Position numbers and translations under genes: made by a program. A DNA stretch of 64,000 nucleotides, taken from Thermodesulfobacteriota bacterium (lineage in GTDB: Bacteria > Desulfobacterota > GWC2-55-46 > JADFVP01). The notes beneath the pieces are model-generated. The model saw only the letters and a program-made list of their open reading frames with translations. It did not search any database and was not told the origin of the DNA. Location of the stretch: positions 11,061-75,060 of the forward strand of contig JBHHUP010000002.1 of the NCBI GenBank assembly GCA_046753845.1, given 5' to 3'. This document shows positions 33,097 through 57,723 of the stretch, piece by piece; within the stretch, counting starts at the first letter, position 1, and every line of letters begins with the position of its first letter.

Positions 33097-35118
33097 ATGG
33101 GATTTCTCACTACTCTCGCGCCTTTTCTCGGGGTGGGCGGCCTTGTTCTCGCTGGCGTCATGTATATTATCGTTACCGGCAAACCAGAGGGTAACGAAAA
33201 GATGCGTGAGATAGCCGGCCTTATCCATGGCGGGGCCATGGTTTACCTGAAGCGGCAGTACAGGATACTCTTTATCGTAATTATTCTGGCGGCCATCGCC
33301 CTAACTATCTTTATCGGTTTCTCTACGGCTATAGCCTATCTCTTCGGCGCCAGCTTCTCAATGATGGCAGGTTTTTTCGGGATGAAGGGAGCTACAAAGG
33401 CAAACGTAAGAACAGCGGAAGCTGCAAATATGTATAAGCCTGACGCCGGCAAGGCCCTTAGTGTTGCCTTTATCGGCGGCTCTGTTATGGGGTTATCAGT
33501 AGCGAGTCTCGGTCTTGTGGGTATAGGAATATTTTTCTATTTTTATGGGTATCCTGATACAGCGGCTGTTATAAACGGTTTTGCCATGGGTGCTTCTTCA
33601 ATAGCACTTTTTGCCAGGGTAGGCGGCGGCATATATACGAAGACCGCCGATGTTGGCGCCGACCTTGTTGGTAAGGTTGAGGCAGGTATACCTGAGGACG
33701 ACCCGCGCAACCCCGGTGTTATCGCCGATAATGTTGGAGATAATGTAGGCGACGTAGCCGGACTCGGCGCTGATATCTTCGAGTCCTATGTGGGCTCTAT
33801 AATTGCCACTATAGCCCTTGGTGCAACGGTAATAGCGGGCTCGGCATCTGCTAAGCTCGGCAGCAGTTTGGCGCTTATGTCTTATCCTCTGATACTTGCC
33901 ATGATGGGGTTAATCTCCTCTATCATAGGCATAGCGGCCATGAAATATCTTGAGCGCTTTAATCCTGCTTCTGCGCTGCGTTACTCAACCTTTATAGCCA
34001 CCGCCATATTTCTTATCTTGGCTTTTTTCAGCACATTTGCCTCACACGTAGCTGTAAGCGTTTATGTGGCGGTCTTCGCGGGCTGTATCTGCGGTATTGC
34101 CATAGGGCTAATTACGGAGTATTATACCTCGGCAGGTCCCGTTCATAGGATAGAGGAGGCCAGTGAGACAGGGGCTGCCACGAATATAATAAGCGGCCTT
34201 GCCGTTGGCCTTGAGAGCACTGTTCTCCCACTTCTCGCTATCTGCATCGCAATATTCGTAGCCAACCACTTTGCCGGGCTATACGGTATTGGTATAGCGG
34301 CGGTAGGAATGCTTGCTACCACAGGCATAATCATGAGTGTTGATGCTTATGGCCCCATAGCCGATAACGCAGGTGGTATCTCAGAGATGAGCGGTCTCGG
34401 TGAAGATGTAAGAGAGATAACAGACAGCCTTGACGCCCTTGGCAACACGACGGCGGCCATAGGTAAGGGGTTTGCCATTGGTTCGGCGGCCTTAACGGCT
34501 CTTGCCATGTTCTCGGCCTACAGTCAGGCCATTACCATGAAGCTCGGGCACAGTTTCGAGATTGTTATTACAGACCCCAAGGTAGTAATCGGCCTCTTTA
34601 TCGGCGGCACCTTGCCATTCCTCATCGGGGCCCTTACCATGACAAGCGTTGGTAAGGCCGCCTTTAAGATGGTTAACGAGATTAGAAGGCAGTTCAGGGA
34701 TATACCCGGACTCCTTGACGGTAAAGAAGGGGTAAAGCCCGATGTTGACAGATGTATCGACATAAGCACCAAGGCCGCCCTTAGAGAGATGATACTTCCC
34801 GGCCTTATCGCCCTCTTAATGCCTATTATAATCGGTTTCATACTGGGCCCTTACGCCCTTGGCGGCATGCTCGCAGGTGCTACGGTAACTGGAGTGCTGC
34901 TTGCCATCTTCATGGCAAATGCCGGTGGCGCCTGGGATAATGCCAAAAAATTCATTGAGCAGGGCAGTCACGGCGGCAAGGGCTCTGATTCGCACAAGGC
35001 GGCCGTTGTGGGAGATACCGTTGGAGACCCATTCAAGGACACATCAGGGCCTTCAATGAACATACTTATAAAGCTTATGAGTGTTGTCTCCCTTATCATA
35101 GCACCCCTGCTTGTCTAG
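33097..35118 (+). CDS. hppA: membrane-bound proton/sodium-translocating pyrophosphatase
   Basis: 673 aa polytopic protein with [20 protein letters not shown] and DNVGDNVGD motifs. Confidence 0.93.
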
Positions 35119-35236
35119 GAGAGGCCGTGTTTCAGGGATAGCTTTTCAGGGTTTGTTTTTTATTTTGTCAAAGAGTGGCTATGGAGGCATTAACTCGGCT
35201 GCTTTTTACATTCAGTAAAGATAGTATTGTTGAGTT

Positions 35237-35272
35237 GGGGCGGTTAGGTCTAACCGCCCCAGTTCTTTTTTT
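35237..35272 (+). terminator. rho-independent terminator of hppA
   Basis: 10-bp stem GGGGCGGTTA-ggtc-TAACCGCCCC, followed by agttcTTTTTTT. Confidence 0.7.
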
Positions 35273-35340
35273 ATGATATATATCGTCTATATCAGCGAAG
35301 AATATTTCTCTTATATTCATACCAGAGAGGTTAGTGCTTC

Positions 35341-36432
35341 ATGGGTTTTAATTGCGGTATTGTCGGGCTTCCAAATGTGGGTAAATCTACGATTTTTAAT
35401 GCGATGACCTCTGCCGGTGCCGTCTCTTCCAATTATCCTTTTACCACTATAGACCCGAACGTGGGCATGGTAGTTCTGCGGGACAGCAGGCTCGATGCCC
35501 TTGCTGAGATTGTGAAACCTGAGAGGATTCTGCCAACAGCCGTGGAGTTCGTGGATATAGCCGGTCTTGTAAAGGGCGCAAGCCGTGGTGAGGGGCTTGG
35601 CAACCGTTTTTTGGGCAACATACGCGAGGTGGATATGATAGCCCATGTTGTAAGGTGTTTTGACGACCCCGGTGTCGTTCATGTGGCAGGAAAGGTCTCA
35701 CCTCTTGACGATATAGATGTAGTAGAGACAGAGCTAATGCTGGCGGACCTTGATGCTGTTACAAAAAGGCATCATCGCACATTGAAGCTCGCTAAATCCG
35801 GTGATAAAGATGCCATACGTTTGGCAGCTATTTACGAGAACCTGAAAGAAGCCCTTGAAGACGGACGGCCCGCAAGGAGTGTACTTGATGCTGAGACGGC
35901 CCCCCTTGTGAAGGACCTCTGCCTTATTACGGCAAAGCCCGTTATCTATGTCGCCAACGTTGGCGAGGATGATCTTGGCGGCAGGAGCGATGCTGTAGAG
36001 AGCGTTCGTGAGGCTTCTGCGAGGCTTGGCGGCGGTTTTGTATCCATGTGCGGCTCAATTGAGTCGGAGTTATCGGTAATGAGTGATGATGAGAGGAGTG
36101 AATTTCTCGATGGCCTTGGACTTAGTGAGTCCGGCCTCGACAGGCTCGCAGGGGCATCATATTCTCTTCTCGGCCTTATTACTTATTTTACCGCAGGCGT
36201 TCTTGAGGTAAGGGCATGGACCGTACGAGACGGAGCCAAAGCCCCGGAAGCTGCCGGTGTTATTCACAGCGATTTTGAGCGCGGTTTTATTAAGGCCGAG
36301 GTTATAAAATATGAGGACTTTATTGCATGGAAAGGCGAGGCCGGATGCCGAGAAAAAGGCCTGGTGCGTATGGAAGGAAAGGAGTATTTTGTGAAGGATG
36401 GAGACATACTGCACTTTAGATTCGCTACATGA
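35341..36432 (+). CDS. ychF: ribosome-binding ATPase YchF
   Basis: GIVGLPNVGKSTIFNA P-loop and a TGS-like C-terminus. 363 aa. Confidence 0.93.
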   Translation: MGFNCGIVGLPNVGKSTIFNAMTSAGAVSSNYPFTTIDPNVGMVVLRDSRLDALAEIVKPERILPTAVEFVDIAGLVKGASRGEGLGNRFLGNIREVDMIAHVVRCFDDPGVVHVAGKVSPLDDIDVVETELMLADLDAVTKRHHRTLKLAKSGDKDAIRLAAIYENLKEALEDGRPARSVLDAETAPLVKDLCLITAKPVIYVANVGEDDLGGRSDAVESVREASARLGGGFVSMCGSIESELSVMSDDERSEFLDGLGLSESGLDRLAGASYSLLGLITYFTAGVLEVRAWTVRDGAKAPEAAGVIHSDFERGFIKAEVIKYEDFIAWKGEAGCREKGLVRMEGKEYFVKDGDILHFRFAT

Positions 36433-36550
36433 CGACGCCCCCCCCCTTATCTTTACTGTTTTTGCCCTTTTCTTTTTACTCTTGGCTTTCCTGCTTTATA
36501 TACAACGTAAATGCCTTTGTTTTTTTAAACAAGAGCAGTATTTTAAATAT

Positions 36551-36583
36551 GTTCTTGACAAGAACATAAATATACTGTATAAT
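36551..36583 (+). promoter_or_regulatory. consensus sigma70 promoter with -35 embedded in a 15-bp palindrome
   Basis: TTGACA (36555-36560), a 17-nt spacer, then TATAAT (36578-36583). GTTCTTG-A-CAAGAAC at 36551-36565 is a perfect 7-1-7 inverted repeat. TATAC-T-GTATA overlaps the -10. Confidence 0.6.
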
Positions 36584-36663
36584 AAATATCATAATCGGTG
36601 GAATAAATCGTTTACAACAACTGGCCATAGATACTTCGACGGTGAAAATCATCTTAGACATGC

Positions 36664-36680
36664 GTAATATACTATATTAC
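36664..36680. promoter_or_regulatory. 17-bp perfect palindrome, candidate operator
   Basis: GTAATATA-C-TATATTAC with 8-bp arms, about 80 bp downstream of the consensus promoter in the AT-rich leader. Confidence 0.35.
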
Positions 36681-36806
36681 AGTTGTTTTCTTAGGACAGC
36701 CATTCTGTTCCATCGCACACTTCTATTTCCTGTAAATCAATTAATAGTTAAGTAGTTTTAGTTTTTCTTGTTTTATGTGTGAAGTACACGCACATTAAGA
36801 GAATTA

Positions 36807-37136
36807 TTGACTTTTTTGTCTTTTATGTACACTTATACTTTAGAGAGAAAATATTTGGCCGGTAAGATTAAGATAGATGCTGAAATCTTTTATGACAAGC
36901 TTAGTGGAGAGGGGCCTGGCCTTCGTGATCTTTTATGGCCGCTCTCTGATCTCAGCCCAAGGGAGCGGGCTGTTTTTATGGAGTATCATTATTGGAGTAC
37001 TCATATGAGGGTAATTGCGAAGAGTCACAGGATTTCACTTGGGAGGGCTTATGAAATACTTTACAGATCAGAAGAAAAAGTCGCATCCGCAAGGACACAG
37101 GAGAAGGCGAAGGAAGATATCTATTTCAACCCCTGA
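36807..37136 (+). CDS. small regulator with sigma70 region-4/LuxR-like HTH
   Basis: LSPRERAVFMEYHYWSTHMRVIAKSHRISLGRAYEILYRSEEKV resembles a region 4.2 HTH. The start is uncertain (TTG 36807 or ATG 36825) and no clear RBS is present. Confidence 0.5.
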   Translation: MTFLSFMYTYTLERKYLAGKIKIDAEIFYDKLSGEGPGLRDLLWPLSDLSPRERAVFMEYHYWSTHMRVIAKSHRISLGRAYEILYRSEEKVASARTQEKAKEDIYFNP

Positions 37137-37320
37137 GGCAGAGCCCGAGGTTAGCTGGAGTGAGTATAAGACCATTAGGCAGTATCAGTCTCTTGGAGAC
37201 GTTCTTGATGAGTTTAAGATATATGGTTTTGCAGCCGGCGTAGAGCATATACTTGAGAAAAATATGCTCTTTGAGAGGGATAACGGTCATTATTGGCTTA
37301 CCTCAGATAAGAAAAAATAG
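37051..37320 (+). CDS. hypothetical phage protein with basic N-terminus
   Basis: ATG at 37051 is preceded by GGGAGGG. It overlaps the previous ORF by 86 nt in the +1 frame and is followed by a terminator. Confidence 0.45.
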   Translation: MKYFTDQKKKSHPQGHRRRRRKISISTPEAEPEVSWSEYKTIRQYQSLGDVLDEFKIYGFAAGVEHILEKNMLFERDNGHYWLTSDKKK

Positions 37321-37365
37321 GTTTTCATTAGTCTTAAAATAATTCAATATATTTTGTTAAGTAGA

Positions 37366-37399
37366 AACCGCACGGGTTATAACCCGCGCGGTTTTTTTT
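37366..37399 (+). terminator. rho-independent terminator
   Basis: ACCGCACGGG-ttataa-CCCGCGCGGT (one mismatch), followed by a T8 run. Confidence 0.65.
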
Positions 37400-37543
37400 A
37401 TCTCTAATTTCGACCTTTAGTGATGGGGGTAGAATAAAATTGCCTTATTTGTCTTGTAAAAACAAATAGATGGGCGTGAAGGGGTAGAAAAAAAACACCA
37501 TAGGGTATAGAGGAGAAAAAAATAACATCAGGAGGTCGCAGCC

Positions 37544-37729
37544 ATGACAGATGTATCCGGTTCTGAGATGAAGGCTTCAGGTGGGCTCAATTGGTTTAAA
37601 TATCGTCAGATTGGAAGAAAAAGGGTCCTTTTGAGGGAGCCGGAGAGATGTCTTGAGTGCGGTCATGTCTTTATTAGTCTTTATCCTATTGGAAGATGTG
37701 TGGATCATGATGGCCTTGAGGAGATCTAA
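37544..37729 (+). CDS. small Cys/His protein, hypothetical (zinc-ribbon-like)
   Basis: An AGGAGG RBS lies 8 nt upstream. The pattern is CLECGH...CVDH. Confidence 0.55.
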   Translation: MTDVSGSEMKASGGLNWFKYRQIGRKRVLLREPERCLECGHVFISLYPIGRCVDHDGLEEI

Positions 37730-37732
37730 AGG

Positions 37733-38254
37733 ATGAGGATCGAGACGGTAGAAGCTCTACCTCCTGTGGAGGTGTATAAAAACGTAGTGGGTGCATGGGA
37801 TTGTAATAAGGCACAGAAATCTGCCAGACATGTCTCCCTTGAATCTGATTACGAGGCTGAGGAGATGAGAGCAGGGGTAGATGAAGTAGCGGTGGAATCA
37901 GCAAAAGAAGGTGTAGTGAATCAGGCAGAGGCTCTTAAAGGCGACTTAAATTCCAAGGGTATTTCTTCTCTGGAGGCCATGGAGGGTATTACCGCGGAGC
38001 ATCGCAGGCTATGGGATAAGGTTAGGAAGAAGTTGGTAGCCGGTCTCTGTAAAAGGGATCTTAATAAAGGCCTTGAGCAGTTGAAGGTCGCAAAGCTTGC
38101 AGGAGATATATTAAGTGTCGTGGTCAAGGGGCAAAGACAGGCCTGGGGTCTTGACGTCCTCGAGGGCGAACTCCGATGCGATGATACGGAGGAGTTTATC
38201 GAAGAGATGGCATCCCTTACGGTACCATCGCGAGCAGATAAGGCTCTGGACTGA
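37733..38254 (+). CDS. hypothetical protein, possible small terminase subunit (by position only)
   Basis: 173 aa ORF immediately upstream of, and overlapping, the large terminase ORF. I recognise no motif. Confidence 0.4.
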   Translation: MRIETVEALPPVEVYKNVVGAWDCNKAQKSARHVSLESDYEAEEMRAGVDEVAVESAKEGVVNQAEALKGDLNSKGISSLEAMEGITAEHRRLWDKVRKKLVAGLCKRDLNKGLEQLKVAKLAGDILSVVVKGQRQAWGLDVLEGELRCDDTEEFIEEMASLTVPSRADKALD

Positions 38255-39449
38255 TGAGAAACGATTCAGTGTAGTCACCGCAGGCAGGCGCTCCGGGAAG
38301 ACCGAGCTTGCTAAGAGAAGGCTTGTTATGAGTCTGGCGGAGAGAAAAAGATGGAGCATCCCAAGGTACTTTGCCGCGGCACCGACAAGGGGGCAGGCTA
38401 AGAGGATTTTCTGGAACGATCTGAAGGCTCTTATCCCCTCAAAATGGGTGAAGAAGGTCTACGAGAGTGATCTGTGTATTAAGACGCGTTTTGGCAGTGA
38501 GCTCTGGGTTGTAGGACTTGACAGGCCCCAGAGGATTGAAGGCATTGCCTGGGATGGAGGTGTTCTTGATGAGTACGCTGATATGAGAGCCACGGTCTGG
38601 ACAGAAAATATAAGGCCCGCTCTCTCGGACAGGCAGGGATGGTGCTGGTTTATAGGGGTACCCGAGGGGTTTAATCATTTCAAGGACCTTGCTGATTATG
38701 CGCGTTCCGGGGTAGATCTTGACTGGGGTTTTTATAGGTGGAACTCCGGCGATATCCTGCCACGTGCCGAGATAGAGTCCGCCAAGAGGATGCTTGATCC
38801 GAAGACATTTCGCCAGGAGTATGAGGCGAGTTTTGAGGGTGCTACGGAGAGGGTTTATTACGCATATCGATCAGAGAGGCATATGGATAGCCATATAAGG
38901 CTGGAGCCGAATCTGCCTATAATTGTCTGCTGTGACTTTAATGTGGACCCCTGCGTATGGATACTTGCCCAGACAGACGGGAGAAGGGTTTTCGTCTTTG
39001 ACGAGATAGTTCTTCATAACACAAATACCGTTGAGATGGGCCGCGAGTTCTTAAAGAGATACGGTAAGCATGGCGCCGGAGTGGTGGTTTATGGAGATTC
39101 CGCCGGCTCGGCAAGGAGCACCACCGGTAAGACGGATTATGTGCTCTTAACTGAGCTTGGTTTTAAGACGCAGAGGATAAAACGCAGGAATCCTCCCGTC
39201 AAAGACAGAATAAATGCCGTTAATAGTATGCTTGAGAACACGAAGGATGAGTTCAGGCTTTTTCATCACCCGCAGTGCGTAAACCTTAAGAAAGATTTTG
39301 AGAGCGTAGTATGGACTGAGGGCGGTGTGGATATAGATAAGACAAATCCCGAGAGGACACATGCTACAGACGCCCTGGGATATTTTATTGAGTATGATTT
39401 TCCCCTGAGGAGTAATAGATTCGATCCATCGAGAAGGTTTTATAAATAA
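38115..39449 (+). CDS. terminase large subunit
   Basis: Walker A in the context RFSVVTAGRRSGKTE, Walker B-like VLDEYAD, and a C-terminal nuclease-like region (CCDFNVDP...HATDALGY). GTG at 38115 has an AGGAG RBS. ATG at 38181 is the alternative start. Confidence 0.85.
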   Translation: MSWSRGKDRPGVLTSSRANSDAMIRRSLSKRWHPLRYHREQIRLWTDEKRFSVVTAGRRSGKTELAKRRLVMSLAERKRWSIPRYFAAAPTRGQAKRIFWNDLKALIPSKWVKKVYESDLCIKTRFGSELWVVGLDRPQRIEGIAWDGGVLDEYADMRATVWTENIRPALSDRQGWCWFIGVPEGFNHFKDLADYARSGVDLDWGFYRWNSGDILPRAEIESAKRMLDPKTFRQEYEASFEGATERVYYAYRSERHMDSHIRLEPNLPIIVCCDFNVDPCVWILAQTDGRRVFVFDEIVLHNTNTVEMGREFLKRYGKHGAGVVVYGDSAGSARSTTGKTDYVLLTELGFKTQRIKRRNPPVKDRINAVNSMLENTKDEFRLFHHPQCVNLKKDFESVVWTEGGVDIDKTNPERTHATDALGYFIEYDFPLRSNRFDPSRRFYK

Positions 39450-57181: not shown

Positions 57182-57304
57182 ATGAGCTGCGAAGAGAAGT
57201 TAAGGTCTATTAATAAGGTCGGTCTTTGTCTTAGATGCGGTAAACTTTGCAGGATTAGTCTAAAGACCTGTGTCTGCGGCGACTGCGCCAGGGAGGCCAT
57301 ATGA
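57182..57304 (+). CDS. 40-aa Cys-rich (zinc-ribbon-like) protein, below track cutoff
   Basis: An AGGAGG RBS lies 7 nt upstream. I verified the frame codon by codon. The stop overlaps the next start (ATGA). The pattern is CLRCGKLC...CVCGDC. Confidence 0.45.
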   Translation: MSCEEKLRSINKVGLCLRCGKLCRISLKTCVCGDCAREAI

Positions 57305-57723
57305 CACCAGTACTTGGCGACCTTATAGAGAGCACCGTTGGCAAGGTGGTTGGCAAATTAACTGACCATTACCTTCCGGCCACCATGGATGAGAAGGAGA
57401 AGGCGGAGTTTCGTATTAAAGCCGGCAGCCTTGCCCTTGAGGAGGCCAGAGCCGCCACGGCCGATATAGAGAACGCCCGCGCTCTTGCCGTGACAGAGTC
57501 CGAGGGAGCCCCGCCGTGGGCAAATGTCTTAAAGGTGACCCATCGCCCCTTATGGTCATTCATAATGCTGGCCATTTTCAGCTGGACCATACTCGCGCCC
57601 TACCTCGGTTATCCCCAGATACCTCTTACGGAGGTGCATAAGTCTATAATGCAGACCGTAATAATCTTCTACTTTGGCGGTCGGAGTGTGGAAAAAAGCA
57701 TAGGTATGATAAAGGCACGCTGA
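57301..57723 (+). CDS. holin-like protein (resembles the 3-TM GTA-release holin family)
   Basis: Soluble charged N-terminal half followed by a hydrophobic C-terminal part (HRPLWSFIMLAIFSWTILAPYLG...IMQTVIIFYFGG). The family assignment is from memory of PF11351-type sequences. Confidence 0.55.
   Translation: MTPVLGDLIESTVGKVVGKLTDHYLPATMDEKEKAEFRIKAGSLALEEARAATADIENARALAVTESEGAPPWANVLKVTHRPLWSFIMLAIFSWTILAPYLGYPQIPLTEVHKSIMQTVIIFYFGGRSVEKSIGMIKAR

Follow-up and report, generated by a model that had tools for sequence, protein, structure and literature searches.

A 64,000-nucleotide stretch of contig JBHHUP010000002.1 (assembly GCA_046753845.1, a Thermodesulfobacteriota bacterium), here called the window, carries an A/T-rich island at positions 36433-36806, between ychF and a run of phage-like genes. 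This island is probably the first-tier control region of a phage-derived, gene transfer agent (GTA)-like cluster that is inherited vertically through one order of uncultured Thermodesulfobacteriota, relatives of sulfate reducers, and forms part of a two-tier switch. Sequence and comparison of relatives delineate its predicted parts: a promoter (P1), two operators (O1 and O2) with their conservation and covariation, a cassette of two small genes (orf1 and orf1b), a terminator and a second control element. From these parts we infer repression of P1, the identity of the binding protein and an action of the cassette on the late genes.

In the mechanism that we propose, a dimeric protein would recognise TGTKC-N7-GMACA at O1 and O2. 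Binding at O1 would exclude sigma region 4 from the -35 box, O2 would act as a cooperative partner or as a roadblock, and the two sites together would keep P1 low. The P1 transcript, consisting of the leader, orf1 and orf1b, would stop at the intrinsic terminator. Head, tail and lysis genes would be reached only via a second tier marked by two copies of GGGGTAGAA, where the P1 products may act as activator or antiterminator.

The window is hydrothermal vent metagenome sequence and its host is uncultured. The assembly comprises 1.56 Mb in 95 contigs, with a completeness of about 66% and 50.3% G+C. It was compared with metagenome-assembled genomes labelled Thermodesulfobacteriota or Deltaproteobacteria, the set comprising 77 genomes of the same order (eight families) and 19 genomes from other orders of the class. 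The sequencing runs that hold the window sequence are vent metagenome DNA only, with zero RNA runs among them.

A consensus promoter at a fixed position

P1 lies on the plus strand at 36555-36583 and matches the sigma70 consensus at 12 of 12 positions, with the -35 hexamer TTGACA at 36555-36560, a 17-nt spacer and the -10 hexamer TATAAT at 36578-36583. An earlier reading of this DNA from its letters (hereafter the original prediction) had reported exactly this arrangement. It is the sole 12/12 match within 35000-39000. The same reading had called such a promoter rare, a claim to be qualified for this genome: the assembly has ten perfect TTGACA-N16-18-TATAAT sites, two of them with N17, against an expectation of about 0.5. 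The organism uses consensus promoters of this type, and P1 is not unique. Promoter geometry places the predicted transcription start at a CA at 36590-36591 on the plus strand, 7-8 nt past the -10 and after an A/T-rich discriminator; a 'CAT/CAC' 3' of the -10 is kept in relatives.

The hexamers and their spacing are kept in an alignment of 30 relatives from 30 species. CTTGAC is invariant in all 30, and the key positions of the -10 are invariant or nearly so, with A34/T38 invariant. Of 42 related loci about 31 gave P1-like matches or profile hits, and these invariably stand 2.9-3.1 kb 5' of the portal gene. A DNA search of the relatives could align the whole island only within the genus. Beyond the genus just ~36546-36584 matches, which is exactly the palindrome described below plus the -35 to -10 region. 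Taken together, the consensus hexamers, the 17-nt spacer and the A/T-rich flanks mark P1 as what appears to be a real and intrinsically strong sigma70 promoter.

The low G+C content of the island was also read correctly at the outset as about 30%. It is 30.0% over 36481-36840 and 32.6% over 36433-36806, against 50.3% for the genome, and 300-bp windows below 36% G+C add up to only ~11.7 kb of the 1.56-Mb assembly. On its left the island is bordered by the ychF stop codon (36430-36432, plus strand), which ends an open reading frame (ORF; 35341-36432) matching YchF-GTPase_C and MMR_HSR1. In about 20 related loci ychF likewise lies directly 5' of the promoter (PPase-ychF synteny).

The -35 box lies within a conserved dyad

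O1 is a perfect 21-bp palindrome, TATGTTCTTG-A-CAAGAACATA, at 36548-36568, and its dyad is kept in about 30 species. The perfect 15-bp palindrome originally noted around the -35, GTTCTTGACAAGAAC, is present and forms part of this longer one. A conserved 17-bp core, TGTTC-TTGACAA-GAACA (36550-36566), is centred near -32 and covers the -35 box. By contrast, TATACTGTATA, which had been noted as overlapping the -10, is indeed present at 36571-36581, but relatives do not keep it as a dyad.

Across species the core reads TGT[T/G]C-TTGACAA-G[A/C]ACA, giving the dyad consensus TGTKC-N7-GMACA. The symmetric position 5 pairs as T:A in nine cases, G:C in 13 and A:T in two, with seven mixed. Whole arms may change as well, as in the triple arm replacement of L051/L069: the O1 arms are AAAAC...ATTTT in L051, and the right one is degraded to ATTCC in L069. 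Dyad cells are complementary at 82.5% compared with 73.7% in shuffles, and the covariation score is 0.247 compared with 0.105; in neither case did any of 500 shuffles score as high, and all slid registers score far lower. The right arm falls in the promoter spacer, which is little constrained by RNA polymerase.

Operator turnover was seen in L032 and L033. Here the right arm of O1 has decayed and a new TGTTC-N7-GMACA site stands 31 bp further 5', at -71 relative to the predicted start (L032:2988-3004, perfect; L033:1964-1980, one mismatch). The dyad is conserved beyond the promoter's own needs, which points to O1 being the operator of a dimeric DNA-binding protein. A protein bound here, with its centre near -32, would keep sigma region 4 away, so that repression is to be expected. 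The original prediction of a strong promoter gated by a dimeric protein at the -35 palindrome thus gains support from the order-wide fixed position, the compensatory changes and the decay of the site in one genome (G010, below). A divergent promoter within the palindrome was rejected, as reading of the minus strand found no -10 at a usable distance.

The conserved second operator is the imperfect one

O2, TGTGA-AGTACAC-GCACA (TGTGAAGTACACGCACA), at 36778-36794, is the best secondary site found in the leaders with the position weight matrix of O1 and stands at a conserved position. It has the same 5-7-5 geometry as O1 and is placed 228 bp 3' of O1 and 60 nt before the TTG start of orf1. An unbiased count of 4-mer dyads in 32 leaders was topped by TGTG-N9-CACA (nine loci) and GTGC-N7-GCAC (seven loci), against a shuffle maximum of four. 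Sites within one mismatch of TGTKC-N7-GMACA occur in 19 of the 32 leaders, compared with a simulated mean of 0.78 and maximum of 4. O2-type sites lie 64-122 nt before the conserved orf1 alignment anchor in 22 of 25 loci. At the same stringency the 64-kb window contains O1, O2 and one unrelated site only. The O2 dyad was also the only leader structure that RNAalifold found in eight leaders of the genus.

The original prediction had placed a second control site elsewhere, at a perfect 17-bp palindrome, GTAATATA-C-TATATTAC, which occupies 36664-36680 (+75 to +91 of the leader). The palindrome exists and is perfect. As a control site it did not stand, because it is lineage-specific: the dyad is broken in the closest relative, L030 (GTAATTTGCTGTTTTGC; portal 92% identical), and in most of the genus, and RNAalifold on the same eight leaders gave zero consensus pairs there. 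Chance is a poor explanation for the two perfect palindromes of the island: under first-order Markov simulation of its sequence, perfect palindromes whose arms reach 8 bp or more average 0.04, with P(>=2) = 0.0007. A perfect palindrome in one genome was nevertheless a weak guide; the conserved second operator is an imperfect one.

The predicted P1 transcript and its two small genes

Behind a leader of ~264 nt, the first gene of the P1 transcript is orf1 (36855-37136, plus strand), which encodes 93 amino acids from a TTG start after AGAGAGA; the start was set by alignment of relatives. The protein has a weak Pfam match to Sigma70_r4, and the best PDB match of its profile is WhiG region 4. Its AlphaFold model has a predicted local distance difference test score (pLDDT) of 77.6, and each of its 50 best Foldseek hits is a sigma region 4 or -35-binding domain, with TM values up to 0.89 on the target. 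The model and these matches suggest that orf1 is a stand-alone helix-turn-helix (HTH) protein of sigma-region-4 type. It is found in 65 of the 77 genomes of the order and in none of the 19 outside, is conserved as strongly as the portal and contains a nearly invariant helix, SLGRAYEILYRAEEK. The claim that no repressor gene is encoded nearby is not supported, as a sigma-region-4 HTH protein is the product of the first 3' gene, which leaves a host factor as just one of two possible sources of control. A search of viral contigs for relatives of orf1, made in view of an ancestral repressor partner, returned a single hit, which is probably the same element.

The second gene, orf1b (37051-37320, plus strand), starts at ATG 37051 in the +1 frame, overlaps orf1 by 86 nt and encodes 89 amino acids. 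Its Shine-Dalgarno sequence, GGGAGGG (37041-37047), lies inside orf1. An arginine-rich N-terminus (LQGHRKRRR) is followed by a small, conserved, helical C-terminal domain, and M1, G15, H16, R17, R19, R20, Q44 and W82 are invariant in the 35 homologues. The model depicts a disordered basic tail with short helices. Searches of solved structures and Pfam gave no match for orf1b, so no sigma region-2 partner for orf1 was found there. The overlap is dual-coding: within 37015-37136 the Shine-Dalgarno sequence and ATG of orf1b are composed of codons of the orf1 recognition helix (L-G-R-A-Y-E), and LQGHRKRRR of orf1b shows stronger conservation than the overlapped tail of orf1.

A G+C-rich hairpin followed by T8 at 37363-37399 (plus strand) is the predicted end of the P1 transcript. 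Of 34 related loci, 30 have a hairpin and T-run at this position, their stems being unrelated in sequence. Rfam searches of the leader and transcript region yielded only sub-threshold terminator-like matches. A nut- or boxB-like RNA was also sought; Rfam gave no match, and no such conserved leader structure appeared among eight genus members, more distant leaders being unalignable. A role of P1 as the direct driver of the phage genes is not supported, given the conserved terminator after two small genes. It is better described as the predicted promoter of a two-gene regulatory cassette, with the lethal late genes held behind a terminator and a second control element.

A candidate second-tier element

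Just 5' of orf2, and before the packaging genes, the plus strand carries two copies of GGGGTAGAA, one at 37426-37434 and the other at 37481-37489, after which A6-CACCATAGGGTATA extends to position 37509. The two boxes, ~55 bp apart and the second followed by A6-CACCATAGNGTAT, are kept in almost every related locus. The extended motif has no second copy in the assembly, and bare GGGTAGAA is as frequent as chance predicts. In L051/L069, where the orf1 helix starts with VT and not LG, the sequence of both boxes is GGGGTTGAA. The element is unlike a sigma70 promoter and is a candidate late promoter or activator site. In L043 (G034:C1, 760-4090) ~3.3 kb are inserted between orf1b and orf2, which indicates that cassette and late genes are separable.

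A vertically inherited particle gene cluster

The genes behind this element, at 37544-57723 on the plus strand, are phage-derived structural and lysis genes by PHROGs and Pfam matches. They encode a Zn-ribbon ORF, a putative small terminase, TerL, portal, scaffold, major capsid and head proteins, followed by tail proteins, a tape-measure-like protein, fibres or spikes, an endolysin and a holin-like protein. All genes between 36.8 and 57.7 kb are phage-like and on the plus strand; lpxC, phoH and ybeY come next. PHROGs and Pfam scans of the cluster found no integrase, replication or lysogeny genes.

The portal is present in 59 of the 77 genomes of the order, in all eight families, and in none of the 19 from other orders of the class. 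Its identity, 92% within the genus, drops to 63-70% over the order as a whole and so tracks kinship; the nearest phage portals (podophage-like) are 37% identical. Order-wide presence, identity that tracks kinship and the shared ychF synteny are the signature of a vertically inherited, domesticated particle cluster. We thus regard the cluster as an apparent GTA-like phage-particle element of this kind. The holin-like protein (57301-57723) matches Pfam GTA_holin_3TM only weakly (E = 0.005, which misses the cut-off), and it also matches a PHROGs holin family. In G003, G020, G025, G028, G038, G042 and G049 the portal frame has one or two in-frame stops near its 3' end, which may be real truncations, shorter C-termini or assembly errors.

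A natural deletion is found in one lineage, G010 (L144, G010:C14 6756-12700), which has lost the cluster from inside TerL to near lpxC. This genome keeps orf1, orf1b, orf2 and orf3 but no longer has the O1 dyad, O2 or the consensus -10. Such a pattern would be expected if a tight gate is maintained because of the late genes.

Candidate proteins for O1 and O2

We give a product of the P1 operon itself, acting by negative autoregulation, about an even chance of being the protein that binds O1 and O2. An unlinked host factor is a lesser but appreciable possibility. What favours a P1-operon product is the combination of a dedicated motif without other targets and a position directly 5' of an HTH gene, which is the usual mark of autoregulation; in these genomes the lexA and MarR_EPS regulator genes also have near-consensus promoters overlapped or flanked by their own operators. 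The search for further copies, from which a regulon might have been defined, turned up none that is conserved. Both perfect palindromes are unique in the assembly at up to two mismatches, and no further conserved copies of the motif were found in the own assembly (up to three mismatches, and site pairs) or as exact sites in eight complete relatives, the cross-genome search for degenerate sites not being exhaustive. In those eight genomes the exact G-class sites, with G:C at position 5, are O1, O2 and a few apparently random ones. The lack of other conserved copies fits a dedicated binder encoded in the cluster.

Several points weigh against the mechanism proposed here. The binder is known only as candidates, and orf1 is nearest in fold to monomeric -35-binding domains, which are not known to bind palindromes as dimers; its sigma-region-4 fold, as modelled, would match the direct GGGGTAGAA repeats no less well than an inverted repeat. 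The orf1 recognition helix is identical in species with T-class (T:A at position 5) and G-class O1, so the diagnostic covariation between protein and operator is lacking. L051/L069, the sole lineage with a changed helix start (LG to VT), has altered both the O1 arms and the GGGGTAGAA boxes and hence cannot tell which motif orf1 reads. The spacing between O1 and O2 varies from 125 to 339 bp among relatives and shows no helical phasing, which does not favour a fixed loop. Finally, the shuffle control for O1 ignores phylogeny, and the start site, promoter strength and repression rest on sequence prediction.

If an unlinked host repressor binds O1 and O2, it would couple particle production to a host signal and the cassette would act only downstream. 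We consider this reading possible but somewhat doubtful. The window holds no classical repressor gene other than orf1, a purely self-repressing cassette could not hold the OFF state, and orf1 resembles a monomeric -35 reader, to which the direct GGGGTAGAA repeats would be better suited than an inverted one. GTAs are also typically under host regulators, RcGTA being under CtrA and GtaR. Set against this are the absence of any other conserved motif copy and of an autoregulatory site at candidate host regulator genes (own assembly; exact matches in eight complete relatives), and the poor fit of both regulators that were checked, MarR_EPS and LexA. A MarR_EPS-type winged-helix regulator (G000 C37:10420-11034) could, in this genus only, have captured the T-class O1 (TGTTC-N7-GAACA), and the sole other perfect TGTKC-N7-GMACA pair in the assembly does lie at this regulator's own promoter, which is flanked by two TGTTCA-N5-TGAACA operators kept order-wide; O1 of this genus matches them at 10 of 12 arm positions. 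We nonetheless find such a capture quite improbable. At least seven near-complete genomes with the cluster, O1 and O2, G020 and G043 among them, lack the regulator (E<=1e-10); its own operators in 30 genomes always carry T and A at positions that are G and C in most O1 and almost all O2 sites, and O2 of the window (TGTGA...GCACA) does not fit.

Direct control of P1 by LexA, which would mean SOS induction of the kind seen in many prophages, colicins and some tailocins, seems extremely improbable. The genome has a lexA gene, and the GTTC/GAAC arms recall the LexA tetranucleotides of several phyla, which is a lead only. However, the box of this clade derived from lexA promoters, GGGTAACA-NN-TGTTACCC, has the opposite arm orientation and a different spacing, and it is absent from the island and the cluster; the two matches in the window (at most one mismatch) are distant and at chance level. 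It is also very improbable that the dyads have no protein partner, being a by-product of selection for promoter strength or an inherited A/T-rich accident. The inner palindrome TTG-A-CAA is indeed forced by the -35 hexamer plus one A, and related sequences can exceed shuffle controls without constraint. Yet the outer O1 arms covary, up to complete arm replacements, the 5-7-5 dyad recurs at O2, where the -35 imposes nothing, lost sites get replaced (L032/L033), and O1 and O2 were both lost along with the late genes in G010.

A CI-like gene with HTH_3 and Peptidase_S24 domains was rejected as the binder; it occurs in one genus only (G031, G037, G055), and the adjoining dyad has different arms (TTGCA-N9-TGCAA). 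In L064 (2126-2830) this CI/LexA-like gene is divergent and lies 240 bp 5' of P1, with a second perfect TTGACA-N17-TATAAT beside it at 2795-2823, and it seems to serve another promoter. The MarR_EPS-type regulator (G000 C37:10417-11100) has a Rossmann-like C-terminal half and adjoins sugar-nucleotide genes; its twin operators, one of which overlaps the start codon, are kept in ~28 of 30 orthologous loci. The LexA box of the order is placed just past the lexA -10 (G000 C79 ~1340-1500, L074:200-260), and the lexA promoter of G018 is a perfect TTGACA-N17-TATAAT.

Comparison with known systems

The layout of the island is reminiscent of the lambda PL/OL-nutL-N-tL1 region. In both, the hexamers of a strong early promoter lie under 17-bp dyad operators, and the gene for a small arginine-rich protein follows 3', then an intrinsic terminator before the rest of the genes. 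As with lambda N, the arginine-rich protein gene (orf1b) stands between the early promoter and a conserved terminator. There are also differences. Except for the CI-like gene in one genus, a CI-type repressor gene is unlinked here, and two operators stand 125-339 bp apart, whereas lambda has three adjacent ones. No boxB- or nut-like RNA was found with Rfam or among eight leaders of the genus, and a sigma-region-4 protein is co-encoded. Unlike lambda, the element is not a phage, having no replication, integration or lysogeny genes.

With RcGTA and its activator GafA (Alphaproteobacteria) the cluster shares a head-tail-lysis gene set that lacks replication and integration genes and is inherited vertically across a clade. 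The structural genes of RcGTA depend on a dedicated regulator with sigma-like DNA-binding parts, and a similar dependence is inferred here; the weak GTA_holin_3TM match of the holin-like protein is a further likeness. However, the two lineages are unrelated and the structural proteins differ, the nearest portals being podophage-like. The regulatory cassette lies inside the cluster, there are no CtrA-type sites, and any packaging of host DNA is putative.

Autoregulated repressor genes such as lexA and MarR-family genes likewise have a near-perfect sigma70 promoter with dyad operators directly 5' of an HTH gene. The fold of orf1 is that of sigma region 4, in contrast to a winged helix or LexA, and its binding to O1 and O2 is putative; in addition, one operator lies far 3' in a long leader. 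The island belongs neither with these genes nor with the lambda-type early regions. The G-class arms ATGTGC...GCACAT have the same letters as TraR/LuxR-type boxes, for which the tra box is ATGTGCAGATCTGCACAT, and the HTH domains of LuxR-type proteins are similar in structure to sigma region 4. We take this likeness as a lead only. The spacing is 6-7-6 compared with 6-6-6, the centre is at -32 compared with about -42, and Foldseek matched orf1 to sigma domains and not to LuxR-type proteins.

Implications

Only a few lineages have known GTAs, and most of what is understood about their control comes from RcGTA. The host of the present element is uncultured, and short, well-defined parts are therefore a practical way in. 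As judged from its sequence, P1 should be active in E. coli, and the small size of orf1 and orf1b should make them easy to express, so that the turn-on of the particle genes would be directly testable with reporters and footprints.

The pairing of promoter and operator is an ordinary device. What is new is the setting: an order-wide two-tier switch with a lone sigma region 4, an arginine-rich protein and a non-canonical late element. More tentatively, we hypothesise that the island may be the master switch of an undescribed, independently domesticated GTA fixed in the whole order and controlled in a way that no known GTA shares, in which P1, clamped by two operators, would express sigma-region-4 and N-like arginine-rich proteins from overlapping frames that redirect transcription or antiterminate at the GGGGTAGAA late element. 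The exact coordinates and the natural sequence variants described here amount to a wiring diagram, order-wide, for the front end of a new GTA candidate.

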